The position numbers and the translations under genes were made by a program. Positions 10,620 through 64,000 of a stretch of DNA of 64,000 nt are shown here, piece after piece. Below the pieces are notes generated by a model, which saw nothing but the letters and a program-made list of their open reading frames with translations, did not search any database and was not told where the DNA came from. This DNA is from Thermodesulfobacteriota bacterium (GTDB lineage: Bacteria; Desulfobacterota; Binatia; UBA9968; JAJDTQ01), in contig OZ220710.1 of the NCBI GenBank assembly GCA_965116635.1, positions 2,335,467 through 2,399,466 on the forward strand. Reading direction: 5' to 3'. Position 1 is the first letter of the stretch, and the number at the start of each line of letters is the position of its first letter.

Positions 10620-11699
10620 CTACGACAACCTGGGAACGATCTCGTCGCTCAGGAACCGGATCACCGAGGCGTAGTCCCGGCCCAGCTTGGCGAAGGAGAT
10701 CTGTTGGAACCCGAGGCGCTCGGCTTCGGCCGCGAGCTCCAGGATCGGTTCCACGCAGTCCGAGGGCCGGCCGGCCACGAAGCAGGCCCGCGGCATGGCG
10801 TCGGTCACCAGCTCCCGCGAGGCCTGCTCGATGGTCATTCCCGAGTGAAGCGCCTCCCGGATGCGATTGACCTGTTCATAGTCGATGCCGATGCGCGCGA
10901 ACTCCTCGGGGCTGTATCCCAGGGCCTGGAGGCTCACCATGTGGTGGGCCGAGTACTTCTTGGCCTCGGCCAGCGCCTCCTCCGGCTCTTCCGATACCGC
11001 CAGATTGATCTCGCAGACCTTCCGCAGCTTCTTGTCCGGGTCCACCGCCCGGGCGGCGGCGTCCGCGCCCGCCATGGCCTGCTCCAGCCGGCCGAGCTTG
11101 TGCATGGAGATGAAATAGCCGCCCATGAGCACCCCCTCCATGGTCTCGCCCGCGATGGCCAGGAACCGGGGCCCCACGCCGCCGCCGTAGAAACGCACCG
11201 GCGCCGCGGGAGGGCACACCAGCTCGATGTGCCCGCGGGGGTTCATGTGGAAGTAGTCGCACAGAGCAGGGTACTCGTCGAATTGTACCCTTTCGCCGCG
11301 GAACAGCGTGCCCAGGAAGCCCACCGTCTCCCGGACCACGCGGAAGGGCTTGACCATATCCAGGTACTGCGGCACCTGCCCCTTGCTGCCCTTGGCGATG
11401 CCGAGGCTGATCTCACGGCCCTCGGTGAGCTCCGAGATGGCCAGCACCGAGTCGGCCACGTCGATGGGATTGCGGAAATAAGGCACGAGGATGGCGGTGC
11501 CGACCTTGAGGGGGGCGCGGGCGGCGATGGCCGTCGCCACGCTCAGCACATTGCGGTAACGGAGCGAATCGCTGAGCCAGACCTGCTTGAAGCCCCTCTC
11601 CGCGCCGAGCTCCGCCAGCTCCACCAGCTCCCGCGTGGTGTAATAGGAAGCCGCCTGCAGCACGAACTGGAGCCCGAACTCCCCCGAGAATATCGCCAT
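10620..11699 (-). CDS. LLM class (luciferase-like) flavin/F420-dependent oxidoreductase
   Basis: 359 aa with a TIM-barrel luciferase-like monooxygenase signature (FGLQFV, SDSL, GRFLAIAGE). Confidence 0.85.
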   Translation of the reverse strand: MAIFSGEFGLQFVLQAASYYTTRELVELAELGAERGFKQVWLSDSLRYRNVLSVATAIAARAPLKVGTAILVPYFRNPIDVADSVLAISELTEGREISLGIAKGSKGQVPQYLDMVKPFRVVRETVGFLGTLFRGERVQFDEYPALCDYFHMNPRGHIELVCPPAAPVRFYGGGVGPRFLAIAGETMEGVLMGGYFISMHKLGRLEQAMAGADAAARAVDPDKKLRKVCEINLAVSEEPEEALAEAKKYSAHHMVSLQALGYSPEEFARIGIDYEQVNRIREALHSGMTIEQASRELVTDAMPRACFVAGRPSDCVEPILELAAEAERLGFQQISFAKLGRDYASVIRFLSDEIVPRLS

Positions 11700-53334: not shown

Positions 53335-54810
53335 ATGACACCCTGGCTCAGAGACTTCATCGACAACCGCATCTTCGGCCCCAACCACCGCTGGTGGGCT
53401 CTGTGGGTGGTCGTGATCTCCGTTTTCATCGCCACCACGGATGTCGGCATGCTTACCATAAGCCTGCCGGTCATCATAACCGAGTTCCGCACCGATATCA
53501 CTTTCGCCGGCTGGATCGTCTTCGTCTACGCGCTGGTCACGGGAGCCCTCTACCTGCCCTGCGGCAGGCTGTCCGATCTGCTCGGGCGCAAGCTCACCTT
53601 CTCCGCGGGCTTCCTGGTCTACGGCGTGGCCTCGCTGGTGGCCGGACTGTCCCAGGGGCCCGCGCAACTGATGGCCTGCCGCGTGGGACAGGCGGTGGGC
53701 GCCGCCCTGATGATGACCAACACCTTCGCCCTGACCGGCTCCCTGTTCACCGGCCCCGACCGCGGCCGCGCCATGGGCCTGTCCGGCGGCCTGGTTTCCG
53801 CCATCGGCTTCACCCTGGGCCCCGTGGTCGGCGGGTTCATCACCTTCACCCTGGGGTGGCGCTACATCTTCTTCATTTCCGGCACCCTGTCGTTCATCGG
53901 CCTCGCCGCCGCCCGCTTTCTGCTGCTGGACGACCGGGGGTCCGGTGCGCAAGCGAAGCGGGAACCCTTCGACTTCGCCGGCGCCGGACTATTCGCGGTG
54001 GCGTTGACGTTCCTGCTGCTGGGCATCACGCGGGGAGGCCTGGGCTACTGGGGTTTCGTGTTGAGCGCGCTCTTCGCGGCCCTGTTCATCTGGCGGGAAG
54101 CAACCTTCCCCTACCCCATCCTCGATCTCGGCTTGCTCCGGATCGTGCCCTTCGCCGTCGGCAACCTCGCGCGCCTTTCCACCTTCGTGGCCCTGAGCAC
54201 CAACGAGTTGATGATGCCGTTCCTGCTCCAGCTCGTGCTGCGCATGGACCCGCTGGAGGCGGGCAGCCTGATGACCGCCACGGCGCTGGTACTCATGGTG
54301 GTGTCGCCTTCGGCCGGCTGGCTCACCGACCGCGTCGGCTCCACCCCGCCCGCGGCCGCGGGCGCCGCCGTCATAGCCGTGGCCATGTACGCCATGAGCC
54401 ACCTGGGTCCGGATTCCGGCCCGGCCGAGATCGTGCCGCGGCTGGCCCTCCTCGGCGTCGGCCTCGGCCTCTTCCAGACCCCCAACAACCACGGCCTCAT
54501 CGGCTCCGTCCCGCACGAACGGCTGGGAATCGCCTCGTCCGTCATTTCCATCATCCGCAGCGTCGGCCGCTCCCTCGGCACCGCCATCGCCACCGCCTTC
54601 GTCGGCATGCGGCTGGCGGCTGTTACCAACGACTCCGGGCCCCAGGACTTCGCCGCGTTGAACGTGGCGGACAACCCCCTGCTGCTGGGAGCGTTCATGG
54701 AGGGCTACGGCTACGCCTACGTCACGGCGGCGTGCCTCGGGCTGAGCGCGCTGGCGTTCACGCTGATCGCGGCGGCGGGGAGGAGCCGTGGGGGCGGCGG
54801 CGGGAGATGA
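53335..54810 (+). CDS. MFS transporter (DHA2-like, ~14 TM)
   Basis: 491 aa with GRLSDLLGRK-type motif A between TM2 and TM3. Confidence 0.85.
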   Translation: MTPWLRDFIDNRIFGPNHRWWALWVVVISVFIATTDVGMLTISLPVIITEFRTDITFAGWIVFVYALVTGALYLPCGRLSDLLGRKLTFSAGFLVYGVASLVAGLSQGPAQLMACRVGQAVGAALMMTNTFALTGSLFTGPDRGRAMGLSGGLVSAIGFTLGPVVGGFITFTLGWRYIFFISGTLSFIGLAAARFLLLDDRGSGAQAKREPFDFAGAGLFAVALTFLLLGITRGGLGYWGFVLSALFAALFIWREATFPYPILDLGLLRIVPFAVGNLARLSTFVALSTNELMMPFLLQLVLRMDPLEAGSLMTATALVLMVVSPSAGWLTDRVGSTPPAAAGAAVIAVAMYAMSHLGPDSGPAEIVPRLALLGVGLGLFQTPNNHGLIGSVPHERLGIASSVISIIRSVGRSLGTAIATAFVGMRLAAVTNDSGPQDFAALNVADNPLLLGAFMEGYGYAYVTAACLGLSALAFTLIAAAGRSRGGGGGR

Positions 54811-54822
54811 TCGGATATCGCG

Positions 54823-55227
54823 ATGCGCATCGACACGCTCGAAATAGACAACGCACTGCTGCGAAAGCAGTACCTCGAACAACACAAGACCCTCACCAGC
54901 GGGCAGATAAGAGAAGCATCCGGACTGAAAACCCGAAACCCCTCCGAACCCGCATCGCGCTGGAAGAGGCAAGGCAAGATCTTCGGCGTCCCTGTCGGAA
55001 GGGCCGATCACTATCCGGCGTTCCAGTTCAGGGACGGACGACCACGGCCCGAGATCGCCAGAGTTCTCGCCGCGCTCCCCGGATCCATGTCACCCTGGCA
55101 GATCGCCTTCTGGTTCACCTCCAAGAACGGGTGGATCGAAAACGACGCGGCGCCCCAGGACGCTTTGCATGATATCGGCGGCGTGCTCGCGGCCGCGGCC
55201 GATCTTGCATCCGACGACCTTGGTTGA
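54823..55227 (+). CDS. Xre/MbcA/ParS-type antitoxin (DUF2384-like) of a RES toxin-antitoxin pair
   Basis: 134 aa, immediately upstream (3-bp gap) of a RES-domain gene. The C-terminal SPWQIAFWFTSKNGWIENDAAPQDAL resembles the DUF2384 toxin-binding region. Confidence 0.6.
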   Translation: MRIDTLEIDNALLRKQYLEQHKTLTSGQIREASGLKTRNPSEPASRWKRQGKIFGVPVGRADHYPAFQFRDGRPRPEIARVLAALPGSMSPWQIAFWFTSKNGWIENDAAPQDALHDIGGVLAAAADLASDDLG

Positions 55228-55230
55228 TTC

Positions 55231-55833
55231 GTGGAGTTCTCCATTCCGGATCCTCCACGTCGGCTCTCGCCCATCCCTCCGCTCGAGGGGCTGCCAGCAG
55301 GCTCATGGTTGCACCGTATACATTGGGTTGCCTGGCGCAGCGCTCAGTTCAACACCGGTGACCGCGTGTCCCGCTTTGCACCCATCGTTGACTCGGAGGG
55401 CCGCCGTGTACCCGTGCTGTATGCCGGCCACACATTTGACGTCGCAGCCTACGAATCGCTGTTTCACGCCATCGGCCCGGGCCAGGAAATGTTGACCTGG
55501 CCGGCAAGCGGGCTCACCGGGCTCGCCCATTCAATCCTGGAAACCCGACGCGACCTTGACGTAGTTCCTCTGTTCCGACGGAACCTCATCGGATGGAATG
55601 TATCCGACCTTGAAATCATCAAGGCGCCAGCCAGATACTATCACCAGACCGCGCGATGGGCAGAGGCCGTCCACCGCTCCATCGCCGAAGCTGCCGGCAT
55701 GGTCTGGATCTCGAATCGCGAGGGTAGCGACCTCTCCGGCCCGGTGGTCGAGGCCGTACGGCAGGATGAGTTCTCACCCCTTGCCGACGTGCCGTCGAAT
55801 CAAATAGTGTTGGCGGCGCGACTGTGGATGTAG
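55231..55833 (+). CDS. RES domain toxin
   Basis: GTG start. Candidate R-E-S residues in SRFAP, VLYAGHTFDVAAYESLFH and VWISNRE, arranged as in RES toxins. Lies downstream of the antitoxin. Confidence 0.65.
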   Translation: MEFSIPDPPRRLSPIPPLEGLPAGSWLHRIHWVAWRSAQFNTGDRVSRFAPIVDSEGRRVPVLYAGHTFDVAAYESLFHAIGPGQEMLTWPASGLTGLAHSILETRRDLDVVPLFRRNLIGWNVSDLEIIKAPARYYHQTARWAEAVHRSIAEAAGMVWISNREGSDLSGPVVEAVRQDEFSPLADVPSNQIVLAARLWM

Positions 55834-56732
55834 TCACCAAAGCGCTGGAATGTCTCATCGACCGTATGGATTCCCTGGTCGAAAAGGCCATACCCGAAGA
55901 AGCTTGCGGTAGCGACGCGCACTTCGGCATTAGGACACTCCGGTAGAGTGTCGAGTACGTCGCGTAGTATCAAGCTGTCTGGATCGTGATTTGCCAACAC
56001 AAGCAATACGACTGGCGGTGCGTCGCTGAAACTGTCCAAGTCTTTGCCGCAGTCGATTAGGCCCAACTCCCGCTTCTGGTTAAAGACTTCCACCATATCT
56101 TCCTTGAGGTCCTTCACATTCCCGGGACGGCCAAGGAAGTTCTTCACGTCAGCGATGTGTGCGTGCAACCCGGCCTTGTCCTTCAACGCCGTGTCGCCGT
56201 ACTTCATTTCCATGATGACGAGCCGCCGATTGGCTGCTTGCTTGCGTACTTGCGTTCTCGATGGCCAGTGCACAGCGATGGCGTCGAACCTCGGCGTCGA
56301 AGACGCCCGCTGATACTCGATATCGCAAATGTAGTAGTCTGTTTTCCGGGCGGCCCGCCCGAAGTTGTTTTCCCGCAGAAGTACTTGTTGAACCTCGCGT
56401 TCATCGTTCCGTTTCTTGCCGAAGAACCGGTCAATCGCCTGTTTCAACGTGGCGGAAAACTCGATCCACTCGTCGACATCCATTCTTCGAAGAACCTGGG
56501 GCTCAGGGAATTGGGCCGAGTCTTTTTTCATAAAGTAGTTTTTGTCGAAGCGGATATCGTATCCATGAGAGAGTTGCCGGACCACCATCAGGTTACCGCC
56601 TCGGTAGTAGACATTGATGTAGCTCCCTCTCAACTCGAGACAAAGGCTCGGGTCCGCAATCACCTCACGCCTCAACCGCGCCAGAACTCCATCCTTCAAA
56701 TCGTTTCGAAACCTGTCGTTAATGGCACGCAT
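55800..56732 (-). CDS. uncharacterised protein with putative PD-(D/E)xK nuclease-like core (FDAIAV ... IMEMKYG)
   Basis: 310 aa, low GC, no family recognised. The D...E-x-K spacing is consistent with a restriction-endonuclease-like fold. Translationally coupled to the upstream MBL gene (18-nt gap, GGAGG). Confidence 0.45.
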   Translation of the reverse strand: MRAINDRFRNDLKDGVLARLRREVIADPSLCLELRGSYINVYYRGGNLMVVRQLSHGYDIRFDKNYFMKKDSAQFPEPQVLRRMDVDEWIEFSATLKQAIDRFFGKKRNDEREVQQVLLRENNFGRAARKTDYYICDIEYQRASSTPRFDAIAVHWPSRTQVRKQAANRRLVIMEMKYGDTALKDKAGLHAHIADVKNFLGRPGNVKDLKEDMVEVFNQKRELGLIDCGKDLDSFSDAPPVVLLVLANHDPDSLILRDVLDTLPECPNAEVRVATASFFGYGLFDQGIHTVDETFQRFGDYIHSRAANTI

Positions 56733-56750
56733 ATCCCTTGTTCCTCCGTT

Positions 56751-58004
56751 TCAAACTACCCACCATTCGCCGTCGTCTCTCTGGACGACATCATCAAACA
56801 ACTCCCCGAACCGACTCGTCTCGAAGGAATGGATCGGGACCAGTGTACCTGGCCCCAACGCGCCGGCAAACCGTGCCAAGTCGGCGACCGAGGCGTGACC
56901 GGACGTGTGAATCGTACGCCGGGGAACACCATGCTGTTCCAACCATTTCAGGACCCTCAACGAGCCCTTCTCTTTCAGATATCCCTCCCACATCGAGTAC
57001 GTGAACCCCGCTCCGTCGAGCACCGCATTGACACCGCGGTCGGTCATCGCCATTGGGCGGAACAACATAACTGCCCGGCTGGCCAAGTCGGGAAGAGCTT
57101 CCGGGAAGACCCGATTCGCCTTGTGCCGTCCGAGGTCATCGAACAGGCCGTTCTCCTTGATGAACACACGCTGCCGTTGCGGAATGTAGACCTTCACCTC
57201 GTCCCAGTTAGATTGCGGGATGCTGTCCCGGCCCGTCGCCTCCAGCACCACCGCGGTGTAGAGGTCAATGAGCAGCACCCGGGCGGTCCGTTTGGCGGCG
57301 CGGAAGATCGTGACCAGGCGGTCGATGTTCTGCGAGGAGGTCCAGACGAAGTGGAGGCCCTTGGTTTCCTTGAAGGCCTGCATGAACTCCGTCTCAAGGT
57401 CGTCCTCGGTAGCGAACCCTTCGTCTGCTCCCGTCCGACCGATGGTCGTTCCCTCCATCAAGAGGACGTCGATGTCCTTCGGCGGGCCGGCAACCATCGC
57501 TTCGAACAACTTCGACTTGCGGCCGTGGGCGCGGAAATCGCCGGAGTAGAACACCCGCTTGCCGTCCGCCTCGACCAGGAGATGGTAGGCATCGAACGCG
57601 CTGTGGTCTACCAGGTACGGCGTGACGCGAAACGGACCGATCTCGACGGGTGTCCGGTCGGCGATGAAGTTAGGGTCGGTGAAGGCAGTCCCGTTGGGAA
57701 CGTAAGCGCTTGCCGCCTTCATCACGTTGTGCGCACCCTGGCCGATGTAGACGGGAACCTCCGGGCGGACGTACCGGGCCAAGCCGTAGTGGTCCATGTG
57801 GGGATGCGAGATAAGCACACCGAGCAGGCTTTCCTCCGGCTCCCGGAAACCCGGAACCTGCGGCAGCAGGCTCTTGTGCCACTCCACGTCGTCCGGCGCG
57901 TCGAGCGGCAGGCCGACGTCCAGGGCGATACGCTTCCCTTGCGCCTCTATCTCGATACAGGTACCGCCGATTTCCTTCGTGCCTCGATGAATTCGAACTT
58001 TCAT
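56751..58004 (-). CDS. metallo-beta-lactamase fold, beta-CASP family nuclease
   Basis: HPHMDH is an HxHxDH motif. N-terminal KEIGGTCIEIEAQGKRIALDVG is a beta-CASP/RNase J-like strand. FYSGDFR (motif A Asp) and IHTSGHAS (motif B/C His). The start is uncertain (ATG 58004 vs upstream ATG 58082). Confidence 0.7.
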   Translation of the reverse strand: MKVRIHRGTKEIGGTCIEIEAQGKRIALDVGLPLDAPDDVEWHKSLLPQVPGFREPEESLLGVLISHPHMDHYGLARYVRPEVPVYIGQGAHNVMKAASAYVPNGTAFTDPNFIADRTPVEIGPFRVTPYLVDHSAFDAYHLLVEADGKRVFYSGDFRAHGRKSKLFEAMVAGPPKDIDVLLMEGTTIGRTGADEGFATEDDLETEFMQAFKETKGLHFVWTSSQNIDRLVTIFRAAKRTARVLLIDLYTAVVLEATGRDSIPQSNWDEVKVYIPQRQRVFIKENGLFDDLGRHKANRVFPEALPDLASRAVMLFRPMAMTDRGVNAVLDGAGFTYSMWEGYLKEKGSLRVLKWLEQHGVPRRTIHTSGHASVADLARFAGALGPGTLVPIHSFETSRFGELFDDVVQRDDGEWWVV

Positions 58005-58112
58005 ATCGTCAAATGCCTTCGCGACATGGCTCCCGTCCACCAAATTCAGTCCAATTCCTCCTCGGCCAGTGCCGCGCCCCATCGGTTTCCGGCAACGTGA
58101 ACCCCTTTCCAT

Positions 58113-58350
58113 ACACTATTCAGAGGGCGAGAAGTATATATCTTTGTGCCTAGCGAAAATTAATCGAGTATTTTAGTACGATTCTCTCATGGTGGAAGTC
58201 GGAGGAACCGCGACCCGCTGACCGGTCACGGTAGACGCGCAACCCTGTAGCCGCCCTTGCAGCAGCGCGATGTTGCTGGTGGGATTCGTCCAGAAGGGCT
58301 TGGCGAGAGGTTTCGGGGGTGGCCTGAAGCAGGCCGCTGGCGAGAACGCT
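58113..58350 (-). promoter_or_regulatory. AT-rich leader/promoter region upstream of the MBL-nuclease operon
   Basis: About 40% GC (tatatatctttgtgcctagcgaaaattaatcgagtattttagtacg) in a ~67% GC genome. No precise -35/-10 assigned. Confidence 0.3.
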
Positions 58351-58680
58351 TCAGTCCAAGGCGAGTGCAAAGCGCACTGCGGTGGCCACACTCTCCATTT
58401 TTTCAGCCGGGAGACTCGTGAGCAGCGAGCCGACTCTGCCGCGTGGAACCGTCTGCAAATGATCGCAGTTCACCGCGCATTCACGAGCCATTCCATCGTC
58501 GGCCGACAGTACGACCTCGCTCGGGATACCGCGAACGGTCGTGGTGACGGGAACGACCGTCACTTCGCTCAGGCTCGGAATGATCGAGTCACGTGTGAGA
58601 ACGAGCACAGGTCTGCGCCTGTCCGGGCGACCGAATCGGTACCAGCGGATCTCACCGCGACGCATCACTCCTCTTTCCAC
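58351..58680 (-). CDS. PemK/MazF family endoribonuclease toxin
   Basis: RRGEIRWYRFGRPDRRRPVLVLTRDSI...VTVVPVTTT...SEVVL matches the MazF/PemK pattern. Confidence 0.8.
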   Translation of the reverse strand: MERGVMRRGEIRWYRFGRPDRRRPVLVLTRDSIIPSLSEVTVVPVTTTVRGIPSEVVLSADDGMARECAVNCDHLQTVPRGRVGSLLTSLPAEKMESVATAVRFALALD

Positions 58681-58913
58681 GCATCGTCACCCCATGCGTG
58701 ATCCCTTTCCGGGATGTCGAACTCCTGTTTGGCGGGCGGGTTCTTTCGGTATCCGGCTCTGTGGCGCTCTTCCAATTCCGCTTCGTCGTAGCGCTCCAGG
58801 GCGGCTCTCAACACTTTGCGTGTAAACCCTGAGCGCGTGGTACCGAGACGCTTCGCCCGTCGGTCGACCCTTTCCACGAGATCGGCATCCATCGTTAGCT
58901 GTATGACTTTCAT
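58665..58913 (-). CDS. ribbon-helix-helix (CopG/MazE-like) antitoxin
   Basis: TMDADLVERVDRRAKRLGTTRSGFTRKVLRAAL is an RHH motif. Overlaps the PemK gene by 16 bp. Confidence 0.7.
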   Translation of the reverse strand: MKVIQLTMDADLVERVDRRAKRLGTTRSGFTRKVLRAALERYDEAELEERHRAGYRKNPPAKQEFDIPERDHAWGDDAWKEE

Positions 58914-58974
58914 AGCTATACACTAACCTATTCTGTGCTCTATACAAGTCTCTAGGACGTGGTCGTGTCGACCG

Positions 58975-59508
58975 TCAGAAGTAGCGCACGCGGGCCAAGA
59001 GTTCGGCGTCCGGCCGTCCGGCGGCCGTCGCCGGCCATCCGGTCAGATCCGGGCGCGGCCCAAAGAGCGCGAAAACCTTGCCGTCTCTGGCTGGCCCGGA
59101 CTGTAGCCCGCCGTCGACCCGCCAGCCATGCGCGCCGCCTGAACGCAGGGCAGCCGACGGCGCCGTGAGCCCGGACGCGCCTCCGTTTCGAAAGCGGTCG
59201 GCTTCCCGTTGGCAATCGAGCCAGCTCTCCCGACCGCCGGTCAGCGTCGCTGGCGCCAACTCCGGCTCCTCCCCCGGCTCGTCACCGATGTCCACCGCCC
59301 ATAGTGCCCGGCGAACCGTCAGCAGGTCCTCCGGATCGACGATTTCCTCGTGACGCAGGAACTCGGCCCACGCCCCGTCCGGCGTATCCGTGAAATAGTG
59401 TGTCAACTGGCCCGGGGCGTTCCATCGACCCGCGGGTTGAGACGAGTCTCCCCGGAGGAAAGGGAAACGGGGATCGGCGTGACAAAAGGCGATCATGTCA
59501 CCGGCCAC
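58975..59508 (-). CDS. RES domain toxin (second copy)
   Basis: GRWNAPG, YFTDTPDGAWAEFLRHE and LTAPSAA provide the R-E-S positions. Overlaps the upstream antitoxin by 16 bp. Confidence 0.7.
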   Translation of the reverse strand: MAGDMIAFCHADPRFPFLRGDSSQPAGRWNAPGQLTHYFTDTPDGAWAEFLRHEEIVDPEDLLTVRRALWAVDIGDEPGEEPELAPATLTGGRESWLDCQREADRFRNGGASGLTAPSAALRSGGAHGWRVDGGLQSGPARDGKVFALFGPRPDLTGWPATAAGRPDAELLARVRYF

Positions 59509-60113
59509 GGTCCAAGGGCTGCCGCCAACTCCCGCACTTGCCGCGGCCCGTCGTCATCCGGTCCCCAATCCCCGTGCAGCAACTGAGCGGGTGCATACCC
59601 GTTGAGCAACTGACGTGGACGGTGGAACCAACGGCGGACGCCGACGTCGTTGTACGCACCCGCGAGATCACCCACGACGAAAGCCAGGAAGTGGAGACGG
59701 GCGGCGACCGCATCGGGCGTCGTCCGGGCGCCGGCGAAATAGCGACGGGCGCTTGACACCGAGATCCTCATGAGTTCGGCCATGGACTCCAGTCCCAGGA
59801 TACGTTCGACAGCCCGCCACTCCCGCTCGGGAACAGGCGATTCGGTGAGCGCCTCGCTGATCTTCTTGAGCAGAGCGGACAACCTCTCCGGCCCGGTGGT
59901 CGAGGCCGTACGAAGCTCCGCCGTGAGCCCCCGGCCGATCCCGGCATCCGTCAAACCTCTCTCCAATCCCTCCATGGCGGTGTCGTCCAGGCGCACGATT
60001 TCGGCGGGCAGCAAGCCCATGGCATCCGCCCGGCTGAGCGCCTCCATAGCTGCCGGCATCACCTTCGGGTCGTCGAACGGACTGCGGATGGATCCTGATT
60101 GGATATTTAACAC
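59493..60113 (-). CDS. Xre/MbcA/ParS-type antitoxin (DUF2384-like), second copy
   Basis: C-terminal AARLHFLAFVVGDLAGAYNDVGVRRWFHRPRQLLNGYAPAQLL is typical of the DUF2384 toxin-binding domain. Confidence 0.65.
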   Translation of the reverse strand: MLNIQSGSIRSPFDDPKVMPAAMEALSRADAMGLLPAEIVRLDDTAMEGLERGLTDAGIGRGLTAELRTASTTGPERLSALLKKISEALTESPVPEREWRAVERILGLESMAELMRISVSSARRYFAGARTTPDAVAARLHFLAFVVGDLAGAYNDVGVRRWFHRPRQLLNGYAPAQLLHGDWGPDDDGPRQVRELAAALGPWPVT

Positions 60114-60220
60114 AATCCGAAACCTATCCGGTCAATGGAGGCCTGTCAACTCCTCCGGAACTTGGGGCAAATTCCGTGCCGGAGCGTCGTGTCGCACGAT
60201 TGATTCAACGATACACGGGG

Positions 60221-61324
60221 TCAAACCGCGACTCTTCGCTCGCCCTCCACGGCCAGCCCGTAGAACTCCTCCGCGTTCCGGTGCAGCACGCCGTGCTTGT
60301 CGTCGTCGGTGAGGCGGTCGTTCTCGACGATCTCGCGGATCTCGGCCTTGCAGTAGTCGTTGTTGACCTCGTGGGGAAAGTCGCTGGAAAACATGAAGGG
60401 TTTGTTGCCCAAGGCTTCGATGGCGTTGTGCAGAGTGGGCTCGGTGCCTTCGCAGCCGACGAAGATGCGCCCCTTTTCGGCGTGGCGTCGGATGTAGTCA
60501 CTGACTTGCTCGCCCGGCTTGAGCTGGATGAACTCGCCGCGGGGGTCGTACTGGACGTGGGTTTCCCAGCCCCGGTCGAAGCGTTCGAGGCAGGTGTGAA
60601 TCCAGGCTACGCCGCCTTCCATGAAGCCCACGCGCATGTGGGGATAGCGGTCGAACAGACCGTTGAACACGAAGCCGGCGAAGCACACCATCTGGCCAAA
60701 GGGGTGGCCCAGGCCGTTGATGGGGGCGTAGGGCGTCAGGTAATCCATGCCCAGCCCCTCGTGGGCGCCGCCGTGGACGCCGATGCTGCAGCCCAGCCGG
60801 TCGGCCTCGGCGTACACCGGCCAGTATTCCTTGGAACCCAGGTGCCCCTTGAGGCCCATGGAGGGCAGCATGGCGCCGCAGAAGCCCAGCTCCTCGACGA
60901 TGCGGCGCAGTTCCTTCACCGCCTCCGCTGGCTCCTGCATGGGGATCAGGCCGAGCCCCTGAAACTTCGCGCTCGCCTTCAGGTAGGTGTCGTGGAACCA
61001 GTTGTTGTAGGCTTGGCAGATCTCGATGGCGAAGTCGCCGTTGATCACCTTGCCCACCGCCAGCCCACCGGTGGGGTAGAGGACCGCGCGCTCGATGCCC
61101 ACGTCCTCCATGAACTCCAGCCAGCCCGTCGGGCCCACCTGCCGGAACGCGCCGGGGACGAGGTCGTAGAGAGTGGCGCTGTGGAGGTGATCCAGGGGCG
61201 GGAAGAGCCGTCCCTTGCCCCGGAAACGGTCGTGGTAGGCGGCCGGCATGTACTCCAGCAACGCCTCCCAGTCCTCCATGACGTGACCGTCGCCGTCGAT
61301 GACGTCCATCCGATCCCAGGCCAT
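60221..61324 (-). CDS. amidohydrolase-2 family metal-dependent hydrolase/decarboxylase
   Basis: N-terminus MAWDRMDVIDGDGHVMED. Confidence 0.85.
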   Translation of the reverse strand: MAWDRMDVIDGDGHVMEDWEALLEYMPAAYHDRFRGKGRLFPPLDHLHSATLYDLVPGAFRQVGPTGWLEFMEDVGIERAVLYPTGGLAVGKVINGDFAIEICQAYNNWFHDTYLKASAKFQGLGLIPMQEPAEAVKELRRIVEELGFCGAMLPSMGLKGHLGSKEYWPVYAEADRLGCSIGVHGGAHEGLGMDYLTPYAPINGLGHPFGQMVCFAGFVFNGLFDRYPHMRVGFMEGGVAWIHTCLERFDRGWETHVQYDPRGEFIQLKPGEQVSDYIRRHAEKGRIFVGCEGTEPTLHNAIEALGNKPFMFSSDFPHEVNNDYCKAEIREIVENDRLTDDDKHGVLHRNAEEFYGLAVEGERRVAV

Positions 61325-61341
61325 GTTCGTCCCTCCCCTTT

Positions 61342-62448
61342 CTACAGTCCGTAGAGCCGGCGCGCGTTGTCGCTCAGGATCTTGAGTTTGACGTCCTCGG
61401 AGATGTCGGTGCGCTCCCGGAATACCTTGATGGCGTCCACGTCACTGGAAACGTCGGTGTGCCCGTAGTCAGTGCCGATGACCAGGCCGTCCTCGCCGCT
61501 CTCCTGGACAATATACGCCAGATCGTCACTGTTCTCGCACGTGACGAACATGCCGAACTCCGCCATGGGGTTGTCCGGCCACTCCCGCCCCAGCACACGG
61601 CAGCGGGCGCGAACCTCGCGCAGCATCCAGGGCACCCACTGGGAACTGGCCTCGATGAAACCCCAGCGCAAGTCCGGAAACACCTGCGGTATCTCGCTCA
61701 GCAGAATGTCGCTGAATGCGCCCACGGTAGGCACTCGGAACCGGTGGAAGTTGGCTGCATTGGACACCGGATGGTTGCAGAGGTCGTTGAACCACGGGCT
61801 ACCGTTGGCGATGTGGATGGCGATGGACATGTCCAGGCGCGTGGCTTCCTCATAGATGGGATAGAAATACGGGTCCACCAGGAGCCGGTTGCCCTCATAC
61901 GGCCGCATCAGCACCGCGCAGGCGCCGTGCTCCTTGCCGAAGCGGATCTGGTCCAGGGCATCGGCAATGCTGAGGGTGGGCGCCAGGCACGACCACCTGA
62001 GCCTGCCCTCGGACTGGGACCAGATGTCCCCAAGCCACCGGTTCCAGCTTCCGCACAGCGCCACCTCCACCGGCGCACGGTCCGTCACCTGCTCGATGAA
62101 CATGGTGTTGTGCAGCACCTGGACGTCGACGTCGGTGTCGTCCATGTGCTCCAGCCGAAGCCCCACGTTGCCGAGTTCCATGGACTCGTCCGCGTCGGCG
62201 AACTTGCGGCCCACCCGCCGCTCACGCTGCCGCAGCGCTTCTTCCGAAAACGCCGGAAAGCGGAAGCCCCGCACCTTTCCGTCCACCACCCAGAACTGCT
62301 GCTTGACGCCCGCCTCCTCCGGTGACGCCAGCGGCACCGGACGGTACTGGCGATCGGAGGGATCGAGGTAGTCCCAGGTGCGTTCGCATTCCACCACGTG
62401 GGCGTCCGAGTCCACGATCAAGGGCTTGCCGTTGGCGTCTCCACTCAT
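61342..62448 (-). CDS. amidohydrolase-2 family protein, tandem paralog B
   Basis: MSGDANGKPLIVDSDAHVVECE. AAGGAG lies 8 nt upstream of the ATG at 62448. Confidence 0.85.
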   Translation of the reverse strand: MSGDANGKPLIVDSDAHVVECERTWDYLDPSDRQYRPVPLASPEEAGVKQQFWVVDGKVRGFRFPAFSEEALRQRERRVGRKFADADESMELGNVGLRLEHMDDTDVDVQVLHNTMFIEQVTDRAPVEVALCGSWNRWLGDIWSQSEGRLRWSCLAPTLSIADALDQIRFGKEHGACAVLMRPYEGNRLLVDPYFYPIYEEATRLDMSIAIHIANGSPWFNDLCNHPVSNAANFHRFRVPTVGAFSDILLSEIPQVFPDLRWGFIEASSQWVPWMLREVRARCRVLGREWPDNPMAEFGMFVTCENSDDLAYIVQESGEDGLVIGTDYGHTDVSSDVDAIKVFRERTDISEDVKLKILSDNARRLYGL

Positions 62449-62519
62449 GTCCTTGCTCCTTTGCCCAACTTCCCGAGCCGAACAGGGGCTCAAGGCACGG
62501 GCGGGTTTGACCCCCGGCG

Positions 62520-63626
62520 CTACAGCGCGTAGAGCCGGCGCGCGTTGTCACTCAGAATCTTTCGCTTCACGTCCTCGGCCAGATCGGTCCGATCCCGGAA
62601 GATCCGGATGGCATCGAGGTCGCTGGACGTATCCGTGTGGCCGTAGTCGGTGCCGATGACCAGGCCGTCCTCGCCGGTTTCCTCCACGATGTACGGCAGG
62701 TCGTCGGTGTTCTCGCAGGTCACGAACATCCGGAACGCATCCATGGGGTTGTCCGGCCATTCCCGGCCCCTGGTCCTGAACCGGTTCCGGGTCTCGTGAA
62801 GGATCCACGGCAGCCACTGGGCGCTGGCCTCGATGAATCCCCAGCGCAGATTCGGGAACAGCTCCGGCACCTCGCTGAAGAGCACGTGGGCGAAGCCGCC
62901 CACGGTGGGGATGCGGAAGCGGTGGAAAAAGGCTCCCAGCCGCACCGGATGGCGGTAGAGGTCGTTGAGCCAGGCGCTGCCGTTGGCGATGTGCACGGCA
63001 ATGGCCAGGTCCAGGCGGCTGGCCTCCTCGTAGATGGGATAGAAATACGGGTCCACCAGCGGGCGGTTGCCCTCGACGGGCCGCATCAGCACCGCACAGG
63101 CGCCGTGCTCCCGGGAGAAGCGGATCTGGTCCAGCGCGTCCGGCATGCTCAGGGTAGGCGCAAGACACGACCAGCGCAGCCGTCCGTCCGACTGGGACCA
63201 GATATCCGCGAGCCACCGGTTCCAGCTCCCGCACAGCGCCACCTCCACCGGAGCGCGCTCCGTCACCTCCTCGATGAACATGGTGTTGTGCAGCACCTGA
63301 ACGTCCACCCCGGTGGCGTCCATGTGCTCCAGCCGGAGCCCCACGTTGCCCAACTCCCGGGCCTCCCTGGCCTCGGCGAACCTGCGGCCCACCTGCTCCT
63401 GCCGGCGCCGCAACTCCTCCTCCGAGAACGCCGGGAAGCGATTGCCCCGCACCTTGCCGTCCACGAGCCAGAACTGCAGCGTGACGCCTCCGTCTTCGGG
63501 CGCCGCCAGCGGCACCGGGCGGTACTGCCGTTCCGAAGGGTCGAGGTAGTCCCAGGTACGCTCGCATTCCACTACGTGGGCGTCCGCGTCGACGATCAAG
63601 AGCTTTCCGTTGGCGTCTCCGCTCAT
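62520..63626 (-). CDS. amidohydrolase-2 family protein, tandem paralog C (~80% aa identity to B)
   Basis: MSGDANGKLLIVDADAHVVECE. The track ORF runs on to 63938 through non-coding spacer; ATG at 63626 follows AAGGAG. Confidence 0.85.
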   Translation of the reverse strand: MSGDANGKLLIVDADAHVVECERTWDYLDPSERQYRPVPLAAPEDGGVTLQFWLVDGKVRGNRFPAFSEEELRRRQEQVGRRFAEAREARELGNVGLRLEHMDATGVDVQVLHNTMFIEEVTERAPVEVALCGSWNRWLADIWSQSDGRLRWSCLAPTLSMPDALDQIRFSREHGACAVLMRPVEGNRPLVDPYFYPIYEEASRLDLAIAVHIANGSAWLNDLYRHPVRLGAFFHRFRIPTVGGFAHVLFSEVPELFPNLRWGFIEASAQWLPWILHETRNRFRTRGREWPDNPMDAFRMFVTCENTDDLPYIVEETGEDGLVIGTDYGHTDTSSDLDAIRIFRDRTDLAEDVKRKILSDNARRLYAL

Positions 63627-63697
63627 GGCCTTGCTCCTTTTCTCGCCTTCCCGAGCCGGGCAGCCGTCCTGGCACGGGCGGGTTTGAAACCCGCCCC

Positions 63698-64000
63698 CTA
63701 CAGCCCGTAGAGCCGGCGCGCGTTGTCGCTCAGGATCTTGCGCTTGACGTCCTCGGACAGGTCGGCGCGTTCCCGGAAGACCTTGATGGCGTCCACGTCG
63801 CTGGAGGTGTCGGTGTGTCCGTAGTCGGTGCCGATGACCAAGCCGTCCTCGCCGGTCTCCTGCACGATGTACGGCAGGTCGTCGGTATTCTCGCAGGTCA
63901 CGAACATCCGGAAGTGGTCCATGGGGTTGTCCGGCCACTCACGGCCCAGGGTCCGGAAACGGTTGCCGACTTCGTGAAGGATCCAGGGCAGCCACTGGGA
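63698..64000 (-). CDS. amidohydrolase-2 family protein, tandem paralog D, 5'-truncated by window end
   Basis: The C-terminal 100 aa are near-identical to paralogs B and C. The frame stays open to the window end. Confidence 0.8.
   Translation of the reverse strand, partial: SQWLPWILHEVGNRFRTLGREWPDNPMDHFRMFVTCENTDDLPYIVQETGEDGLVIGTDYGHTDTSSDVDAIKVFRERADLSEDVKRKILSDNARRLYGL

Follow-up and report, generated by a model that had tools for sequence, protein, structure and literature searches.

One copy of a 31-bp direct repeat in a toxin–antitoxin and nuclease islet of a Binatia genome is probably the scar of nested illegitimate recombination

In a 64,000-nucleotide stretch of contig OZ220710.1 (assembly GCA_965116635.1, Thermodesulfobacteriota bacterium, class Binatia; the whole stretch is called the window below), two identical 31-mers, ACCTCTCCGGCCCGGTGGTCGAGGCCGTACG, bracket an islet of toxin–antitoxin and nuclease-like genes. 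The question is whether such a repeat marks the ends of a mobile element or arose in some other way. The islet holds a RES toxin gene with its putative antitoxin partner (RES1 and Xre1), a PD-(D/E)XK-like gene (P), a metallo-β-lactamase (MBL)/β-CASP nuclease-like gene (B), a MazF toxin gene with a ribbon-helix-helix (RHH) antitoxin gene (together MazEF) and a second RES–Xre module (RES2 and Xre2). Copy 1 of the repeat (55730-55760) lies in the RES1 reading frame and copy 2 (59882-59912) in Xre2, both on the plus strand at a spacing of 4152 nt. A preliminary description of the locus read the copies either as an att-type integration scar delimiting a segment of 4.2 kb or as a recombination junction between the two RES–Xre modules. 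From the comparison with related loci given here, copy 1 most probably does not bound a mobile element; it would be the scar of two nested events of illegitimate recombination.

The repeat was recovered by a repeat finder as a two-copy family, exact and on the same strand, as first described. The description had called chance identity negligible, which is borne out by an expectation of 0.00 such matches in 100 dinucleotide shuffles. Identity between the copies drops abruptly beyond each border of the 31 nt, and no further copy was found in the window with up to three mismatches allowed. A degenerate scan of 185,579 representative genomes gave 0 matches, and a degenerate search gave matches on three JGI metagenome contigs; the 31-mer is not a dispersed repeat. 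Contigs with homologs of the islet genes were compared with the window by blastn (loci L001 and following; gene orders are stated in window orientation). All nine related loci with the 31-mer or a near variant carry exactly one copy, always at the Xre2 position; it is exact in L008, L009, L010 and L033, differs at five positions in L001 and at three in L005-L007, and matches the resident Xre2 of the window at 31/31. Because the 31 nt are identical in L008, L009, L010 and L033, the perfect identity of the two copies in the window needs no special explanation. Copy 2 is native, ordinary coding sequence in register with the Xre2 family alignment, since Xre2 is full length (hundreds of homologs of 206 aa align with it collinearly along 100% of its length). 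Copy 1 is missing at the corresponding place in L004, L008 and L009; it is foreign to RES1 and marks the start of foreign DNA.

The position of copy 1 in the 3' end of RES1, as given in the preliminary description, holds for the reading frame only, which here runs through foreign sequence: RES1 is native through codon 167 (to 55732), after which 33 codons read on through the 31-mer and into the P flank, and the toxin lacks the 45 conserved residues (RCYVFFGDRV...ITI) of the C-terminus. In the alignment the homologs read ...ISNREGSD-RCYVFFGDRV...ITI and the window reads ...ISNREGSD-LSGPVVEAVRQDEF..., diverging right after Asp167. The codon of this residue is 55729-55731, and RES1 homology thus ends at the left edge of copy 1. 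Coverage of the query by RES1 homologs is at most 91%, and alignments of full length end near residue 168. The left joint can be read directly by alignment (a slash marks the junction): native RES1 in L003 and L004 has ...GGTAGCGACC/GCTGTTAC..., the Xre2 gene of L033, a donor-type locus described below, has ...ACGGACAACC/TCTCCGG... (..GACAACC/TCTC..), and the window has ...GGTAGCGACC/TCTCCGG.... The sequence common to both sides is ACC only, without flanking homology, in alignments with L001, L003, L004 and L033.

The arrangement of the recipient type is found in L004, which is 95–98% identical to the window and has the same gene order, no copy 1 and an unrelated gene, P', in place of P. L004 is 97.9% identical to the window up to 55735 and then continues into the native 3' end of RES1 (with a 1-nt frameshift), a spacer and P', so that 1269 nt stand where the window has 55736-56747. 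P' (L004:3710-4738) encodes 342 aa of family PF14281 (PDDEXK_4) and has no similarity to P (BLASTP E = 2.4). The same backbone at the same identity is present in L008 and L009, with a third unrelated gene, P'' (L008:6349-7326, 325 aa), in the slot and one exact 31-mer, in Xre2. In L005 (88–95% to the window), the relative with the fewest genes, the MFS transporter gene is directly beside RES2-Xre2; L005 departs from the window over 54784-58967, and these limits do not coincide with the repeat. In L001 and L006 (83–93%) P and B lie on the other side of the second module, in the order RES2–Xre2–spacer–P–B–amidohydrolases.

P0153, the closest homolog of P (97%), is encoded on L033, an independent 1.01-Mb ENA metagenome contig that holds a single exact 31-mer at 10973-11003. 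Two parts of the window match L033 up to this one copy: 58958-59912, which comprises RES2 and the 3' part of Xre2 through the 31-mer, aligns with L033 11923-10973 at 93%, and 55730-58062, which comprises the 31-mer, P and B, aligns with L033 11003-8672 at 96.4%. The 31-mer of L033 is continuous with 0.95 kb of RES2-Xre2 at one end and with the P flank at the other (order RES2, truncated Xre2, 31-mer, P, B, RHH fragment). With matches on both sides of one 31-mer, L033 therefore has a 5'-truncated Xre2 fused to the P flank through the 31-mer. Comparison with L001 and L006, which keep the undeleted order Xre2–spacer–P–B, puts the deletion at about 340 nt (the first 67 Xre2 codons and the spacer). 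The microhomology at this joint is GCCGTA(CG) in Xre2 versus GCCGTA(ttgtt)CG in the P flank, of which one short-repeat copy is left; the repeat is imperfect and the breakpoint is resolvable only to GCCGTA..CG. The joint sets the right border of copy 1 and appears to predate the rearrangement seen in the window, because L033 has the identical joint in continuity with its 0.95 kb of RES2-Xre2. The RES2-Xre2 module of L033 (10973-11923), with RES2 split into two open reading frames (ORFs; 69 and 156 aa) and Xre2 without its first 67 codons, looks degenerate, or may instead contain long-read errors.

The age of this joint bears on a different origin for copy 1, namely that it was copied as filler from the Xre2 gene resident in the same chromosome, by template switching or SPDIR (short-patch double illegitimate recombination), while RES1 was joined to the P flank. 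This was first considered the main explanation, and it was dropped on the finding that the L033 joint is continuous with Xre2. SPDIR proceeds by annealing of ectopic single strands at microhomologies (bioRxiv 10.1101/2023.11.22.568220), and copy 1 resembles its products in being a short ectopic sequence with microhomology at both borders (ACC on the left, GCCGTA..CG on the right); it also matches the resident Xre2 at 31/31, against five differences in L001 and three in L005-L007. However, the joint between 31-mer and P flank is shared with L033 and so predates the event in the window, the tract of high identity to the donor type begins exactly at the 31-mer, and the 31-mer occurs commonly in exact form among the population (L008, L009, L010 and L033), so that copying within the genome is not required. 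A filler would have native DNA on both sides and be ectopic by itself, whereas copy 1 has a right border inherited from the donor type and is contiguous with 1.5 kb of donor-type DNA, unlike an isolated micro-indel. Copying from the resident gene is now regarded as improbable.

Identity to the two types of relative changes along the window. Across 55730-57215 the window differs from L033 at 20 of 1486 nt (98.7% identity), and elsewhere, in the rest of B and in RES2-Xre2, the identity is 92–93%. In sliding comparison the identity to L033 is 98–100% from 55737 to about 57235 and 88–95% beyond, and that to L004 is 60–80% before about 57190 and 92–99% after. At sites that distinguish L033 from L004 the window is L033-type at 115 of 121 up to 57215, and L004-type predominates from 57249. 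The crossover lies in B, bounded by the informative sites 57225 (the last of L033 type) and 57249 (the first of L004 type), so that the 3' third of B is of L033 type and the 5' two thirds are of L004 type. The base composition follows the same division. The preliminary description had the whole bracketed segment as AT-richer; this is true of P (G+C fraction 0.54) and of the patch 55730-57225 (0.56) and fails for RES2-Xre2 (0.67, against 0.65 for the whole window). The AT-richer DNA is the imported patch and not the entire region between the repeats.

This gradient of identity also bears on a history of tandem duplication, in which a unit P-B-MazEF-RES2-Xre2(3' part) was duplicated in an ancestor and the window and L033 are differently trimmed descendants. 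The order in L033 is indeed a circular permutation of the inter-repeat unit of the window, and the joint between 31-mer and P is exactly what unequal exchange of GCCGTACG in Xre2 with the P flank would give. Such a history nevertheless predicts uniform divergence, whereas 98.7% identity to L033 in 55730-57215 against 92–93% elsewhere points to recent local transfer. L033 moreover shares with L001 and L006 the slot between Xre2 and the amidohydrolases, where a simple deletion of 340 nt suffices, and several extra precise deletions would be required. We consider a duplication of this kind unlikely. Even less credence is given to an assembly chimera of co-occurring L004-type and L033-type strains as the source of the left joint. 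Both strain types are present in metagenomes, the switch inside B is a place where an assembler could hop between strains, and 31 is a common k-mer size; the left joint, however, shares 3 nt only, too few for joining by an overlap or de Bruijn step, the likely source is a single contig of 5.1 Mb, and the joint between 31-mer and P occurs independently in L033.

The same comparisons leave very little room for the att reading, in which a site-specific recombinase inserted a 4.15-kb element and the copies are attL and attR of that insertion. The copies do resemble the att sites of integrase-mobilised islands and prophages: they are two perfect direct repeats of att-like length (tens of base pairs) with sharp borders, a few kilobases apart and one of them in a gene, and part of the enclosed DNA is lower in G+C. 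No integrase or recombinase was found in or beside the bracketed unit, however, and there is no transposase match among the eight islet genes either: Pfam matches of these and of two flanking genes are to RES, MazF, RHH, MBL, MFS and amidohydrolase families only, scans with PADLOC and NCBIfam added no integrase or recombinase, and no tRNA gene is present in the 64-kb window. If the outer flanks were joined, RES1 codon 167 would run into the antisense strand of Xre2, an implausible structure for an empty site. Nor is the unit present or absent as a whole in the relatives, none of which has an indel bounded by both copies: L004, L008 and L009 lack copy 1 and yet keep B, MazEF and RES2-Xre2; the breakpoints of L005 are those given above; and L001, L006 and L033 have P and B elsewhere. 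The enclosed DNA is of two ancestries, switching within B, and in L033 a single copy sits inside an uninterrupted Xre2 remnant joined to P. The integration scar of the preliminary description is abandoned on these grounds. Its other proposal, a recombination junction of RES–Xre modules, survives in part, in that copy 1 does join RES1 to a piece of Xre2; the piece comes from the truncated Xre2 of a donor, already fused to P as in L033, and not from an exchange between the resident modules.

Nested illegitimate recombination would account for the locus as follows. In an older step, common to L033, a lineage with P-B directly beside RES2-Xre2 (the order of L001 and L006) would have lost the approximately 340 nt that separate the GCCGTACG of Xre2 from the GCCGTAttgttCG of the P flank, leaving a 5'-truncated Xre2 fused to P. 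In a second step, specific to the window, donor DNA of this kind would have entered a strain of L004 type with the order MFS-Xre1-RES1-P'-B-MazEF-RES2-Xre2. One end would have been resolved by homologous recombination in B at 57225-57249 and the other by an illegitimate join at ACC, linking RES1 codon 167/168 to the donor's truncated Xre2 at 31 nt from its end. The 31-mer, P and the 3' third of B would thereby have taken the place of the final ~135 nt of RES1, of the intergenic DNA and of P'. The direct repeat would arise because an Xre2 remnant formed the DNA left of P in the donor, while the recipient possesses, at a distance of 4.15 kb, an Xre2 gene with the same 31 nt; the edges of the repeat would be the two illegitimate joints. 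Both joints, the arrangements of donor type and recipient type and the interval of the crossover are seen in the sequences, and from them we infer in what order and direction the events took place and how the DNA came into the cell. A change from L033 type to window is the parsimonious direction, because the 31 nt of Xre2 at the window joint cannot be the source of the 0.95-kb Xre2-RES2 continuity in L033.

The event is of a known kind, illegitimate recombination with a one-sided homology anchor on top of an older deletion between short direct repeats, and involves no new mechanism. In the account given in PMC6382021, homology-facilitated illegitimate recombination (HFIR) combines a homologous anchor on one side with a joint at 3–10 bp of microhomology, with loss of resident DNA and gain of non-homologous DNA; it is known from natural transformation of Acinetobacter baylyi, Streptococcus pneumoniae and Pseudomonas stutzeri (de Vries & Wackernagel, 2002; Prudhomme et al., 2002; Meier & Wackernagel, 2003; all as cited there). 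The window agrees in having a homologous anchor at one end (in B, 57225-57249) and a short G+C-rich microhomology at the other (ACC), and in the deletion of resident DNA and gain of non-homologous donor DNA (P' to P). It differs in that HFIR was seen in laboratory transformation, whereas the event here is deduced from natural, metagenome-derived genomes of an uncultured bacterium of 65% G+C, and in that the anchor is only about 90–95% identical. The older step resembles slipped-strand or microhomology-mediated deletion, with ~340 nt lost between short direct repeats and one copy left, and differs in the imperfection of the short repeat. Several points count against the nested history. The joint between RES1 and the 31-mer is known from this assembly only (P0001, a homolog with the same chimeric C-terminus, is probably from the same genome), and L033 and L004 are stand-ins for the true donor and recipient. 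Some L033-type sites recur at about 57800-57950 in the 5' part of B, and further exchanges may belong to the true history.

The slot immediately downstream of B was found to hold three mutually unrelated PD-(D/E)XK-like genes (P, P' and P'') in backbones that are otherwise 95–98% identical, with the boundaries of replacement at the B stop codon (56748 in the window). Within B, the 3' third (56751-57225) is 73–79% identical between the P-associated type and the types associated with P' and P'', and the 5' two thirds (57250-58004) are 86–95% identical, a pattern suggesting that exchange may involve the C-terminal domain of B together with the partner gene. Homologs of P adjoin a B homolog directly in 10 of 22 genome loci (L011-L032), in either order, and no RES–Xre genes were found near P in these loci. 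The P family, with 693 homologs, is widespread (Binatia, Gammaproteobacteria, Latescibacterota, Alphaproteobacteria, Gemmatimonadota, Bacillota and others), and one member, P0228 (508 aa), combines P-like and MBL domains in one protein. The event at the 31-mer could possibly be one case of a recurrent strain-to-strain swap of P and the C-terminal third of B as a unit, a suggestion that we make tentatively and think doubtful. Such swapping would be in keeping with a defence-like module of two nucleases in which a partner or specificity subunit can be exchanged.

The coordinates of the features are given in Table 1. Homology searches of the islet genes gave the following results. The match of Xre1 to PF23125 scores 20.7 bits, below the cutoff of 27.8; Xre2 has no Pfam match, and a few of its homologs have PF01381 or PF13560 helix-turn-helix domains. 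Both RES toxins match PF08808 (E = 5.6e-08 and 5e-07). The toxin genes are directly downstream of small antitoxin genes (Xre1 ends 4 nt before RES1, and Xre2 overlaps RES2 by 16 nt), and this pairing is conserved in the relatives. For B, the RMMBL match is below cutoff (18.1 versus 21.6 bits) and NCBIfam RNase J family matches are far below it. P gave no match in Pfam, NCBIfam or PADLOC and none to PDB folds; Asp150, Glu175 and Lys177 are invariant in its family and lie on adjacent predicted strands. No PADLOC match was obtained for P, B or the toxin–antitoxin genes, and P' and P'' gave weak matches to candidate families only.

Table 1. Positions of genes, joints and recombinant tracts in the window
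Feature	Positions	Strand	Remarks
MFS transporter	53335-54810	+	Pfam match
Xre1, putative RES1 antitoxin partner	54823-55227	+	Intact; weak Pfam match to Xre-MbcA-ParS_M; kept upstream of RES1 in L003, L004 and L008
RES1 toxin, truncated	55231-55833	+	Pfam RES match ending at residue 163, profile position 125/157
Left illegitimate joint	55730-55732		ACC, 3-nt microhomology of native RES1 (..AGCGACC/GCTG..) and Xre2 (..GGACAACC/TCTCC..)
31-mer copy 1	55730-55760		Probable last relic of a 5'-truncated Xre2 (antisense on the plus strand) that travelled with P; left end of the imported patch
Imported patch, ~1.5 kb	55730-57225		31-mer, 39-nt flank, P and 3' third of B
Older deletion joint	55753-55760		Xre2 (GCCGTACG/AAGC) versus native P left flank (GCCGTATTGTTCG/GCAG in L001 and L006); identical joint in L033
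P, PD-(D/E)XK-like, 310 aa	55800-56732	-	Probable cargo of the event; no family match
B, MBL/β-CASP nuclease-like, 417 aa from the MKVRIH start	56751-58004	-	Pfam Lactamase_B_2; recombinant
Homologous crossover interval in B	57225-57249		Last L033-type informative site 57225, first L004-type 57249
MazF/PemK toxin	58351-58680	-	Pfam match; resident, L004-type (blastn against L004)
RHH antitoxin	58665-58913	-	Pfam match; resident, L004-type (blastn against L004)
RES2 toxin	58975-59508	-	Pfam RES match; resident module, intact
Xre2 antitoxin, 206 aa	59493-60113	-	Resident, intact; RES2-Xre2 pair kept in L001 and L004-L009
31-mer copy 2	59882-59912	-	Resident Xre2 coding sequence, codons 68-78 (RTASTTGPERL)
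Amidohydro_2 tandem array	from 60221	-	Pfam match

RES1 is disabled in three independent ways among these loci: by 3' truncation in the window, by a 1-nt frameshift in L004 (4972-5424), which is possibly a sequencing error, and by internal deletion in L008 (5744-5989, 81 aa) and likewise in L009. Xre1 upstream of the disabled gene is intact in all four. L001, which carries a full P-B pair, has in addition a 307-bp fragment of B (929-1234, 85% identical to window 57166-57472) just downstream of its intact RES1; the fragment is a relic of an earlier arrangement with B beside RES1. Upstream of B in the window, an AT-rich stretch at 58100-58200 (..GAAGTATATATCTTTGTGCCTAGCGAAAATTAATCGAGTATTTTAGTACG..) is conserved in L004 and is likely to be the promoter or operator region of the B-P pair. 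Homology to L001 and L006 stops at the B start codon, and the pair is therefore driven by different upstream DNA in its two locations.

A second variable spot lies between the start of Xre2 and the first amidohydrolase gene (about 60150-60220). It is empty in the window, L004, L008 and L009, holds P-B and 0.6–1 kb of further DNA in L001, L006 and L033 (in L006 also a DUF433 gene), and in L005 holds a 2.2-kb insert with a BPD_transp fragment. Between its MFS gene and RES2 (about 11100-11290), L005 also has some 160 nt of inserted DNA that resembles a miniature inverted-repeat transposable element, with terminal inverted repeats TGTCTCAAATAAAACGTG...CACGTTTTATTTGAGACA and a duplicated CTAGTG on either side of the insert; it is absent from L006 at that place. 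The Amidohydro_2 paralogs at 60221-64000 repeat with a period of 1178 nt, are 74–84% identical between units and run past the end of the window; the array has three to five units in the relatives.

With this analysis a false lead is removed, in that the 31-mer repeat presents no new mobile element or att site. The locus is instead a well-resolved natural case, in an uncultured bacterium, of gene replacement by one-sided homology and a joint at 3 nt of microhomology, for which genomes of donor type and recipient type have both been recovered and both breakpoints mapped to within a few bases. The toxin gene RES1 appears to have been disabled as collateral damage of the exchange. If the swap of P with part of B is recurrent, the 31-mer would be a datable footprint of one such swap by one-sided homology. 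Short perfect repeats around a toxin–antitoxin and nuclease islet can be by-products, and not agents, of cargo exchange.

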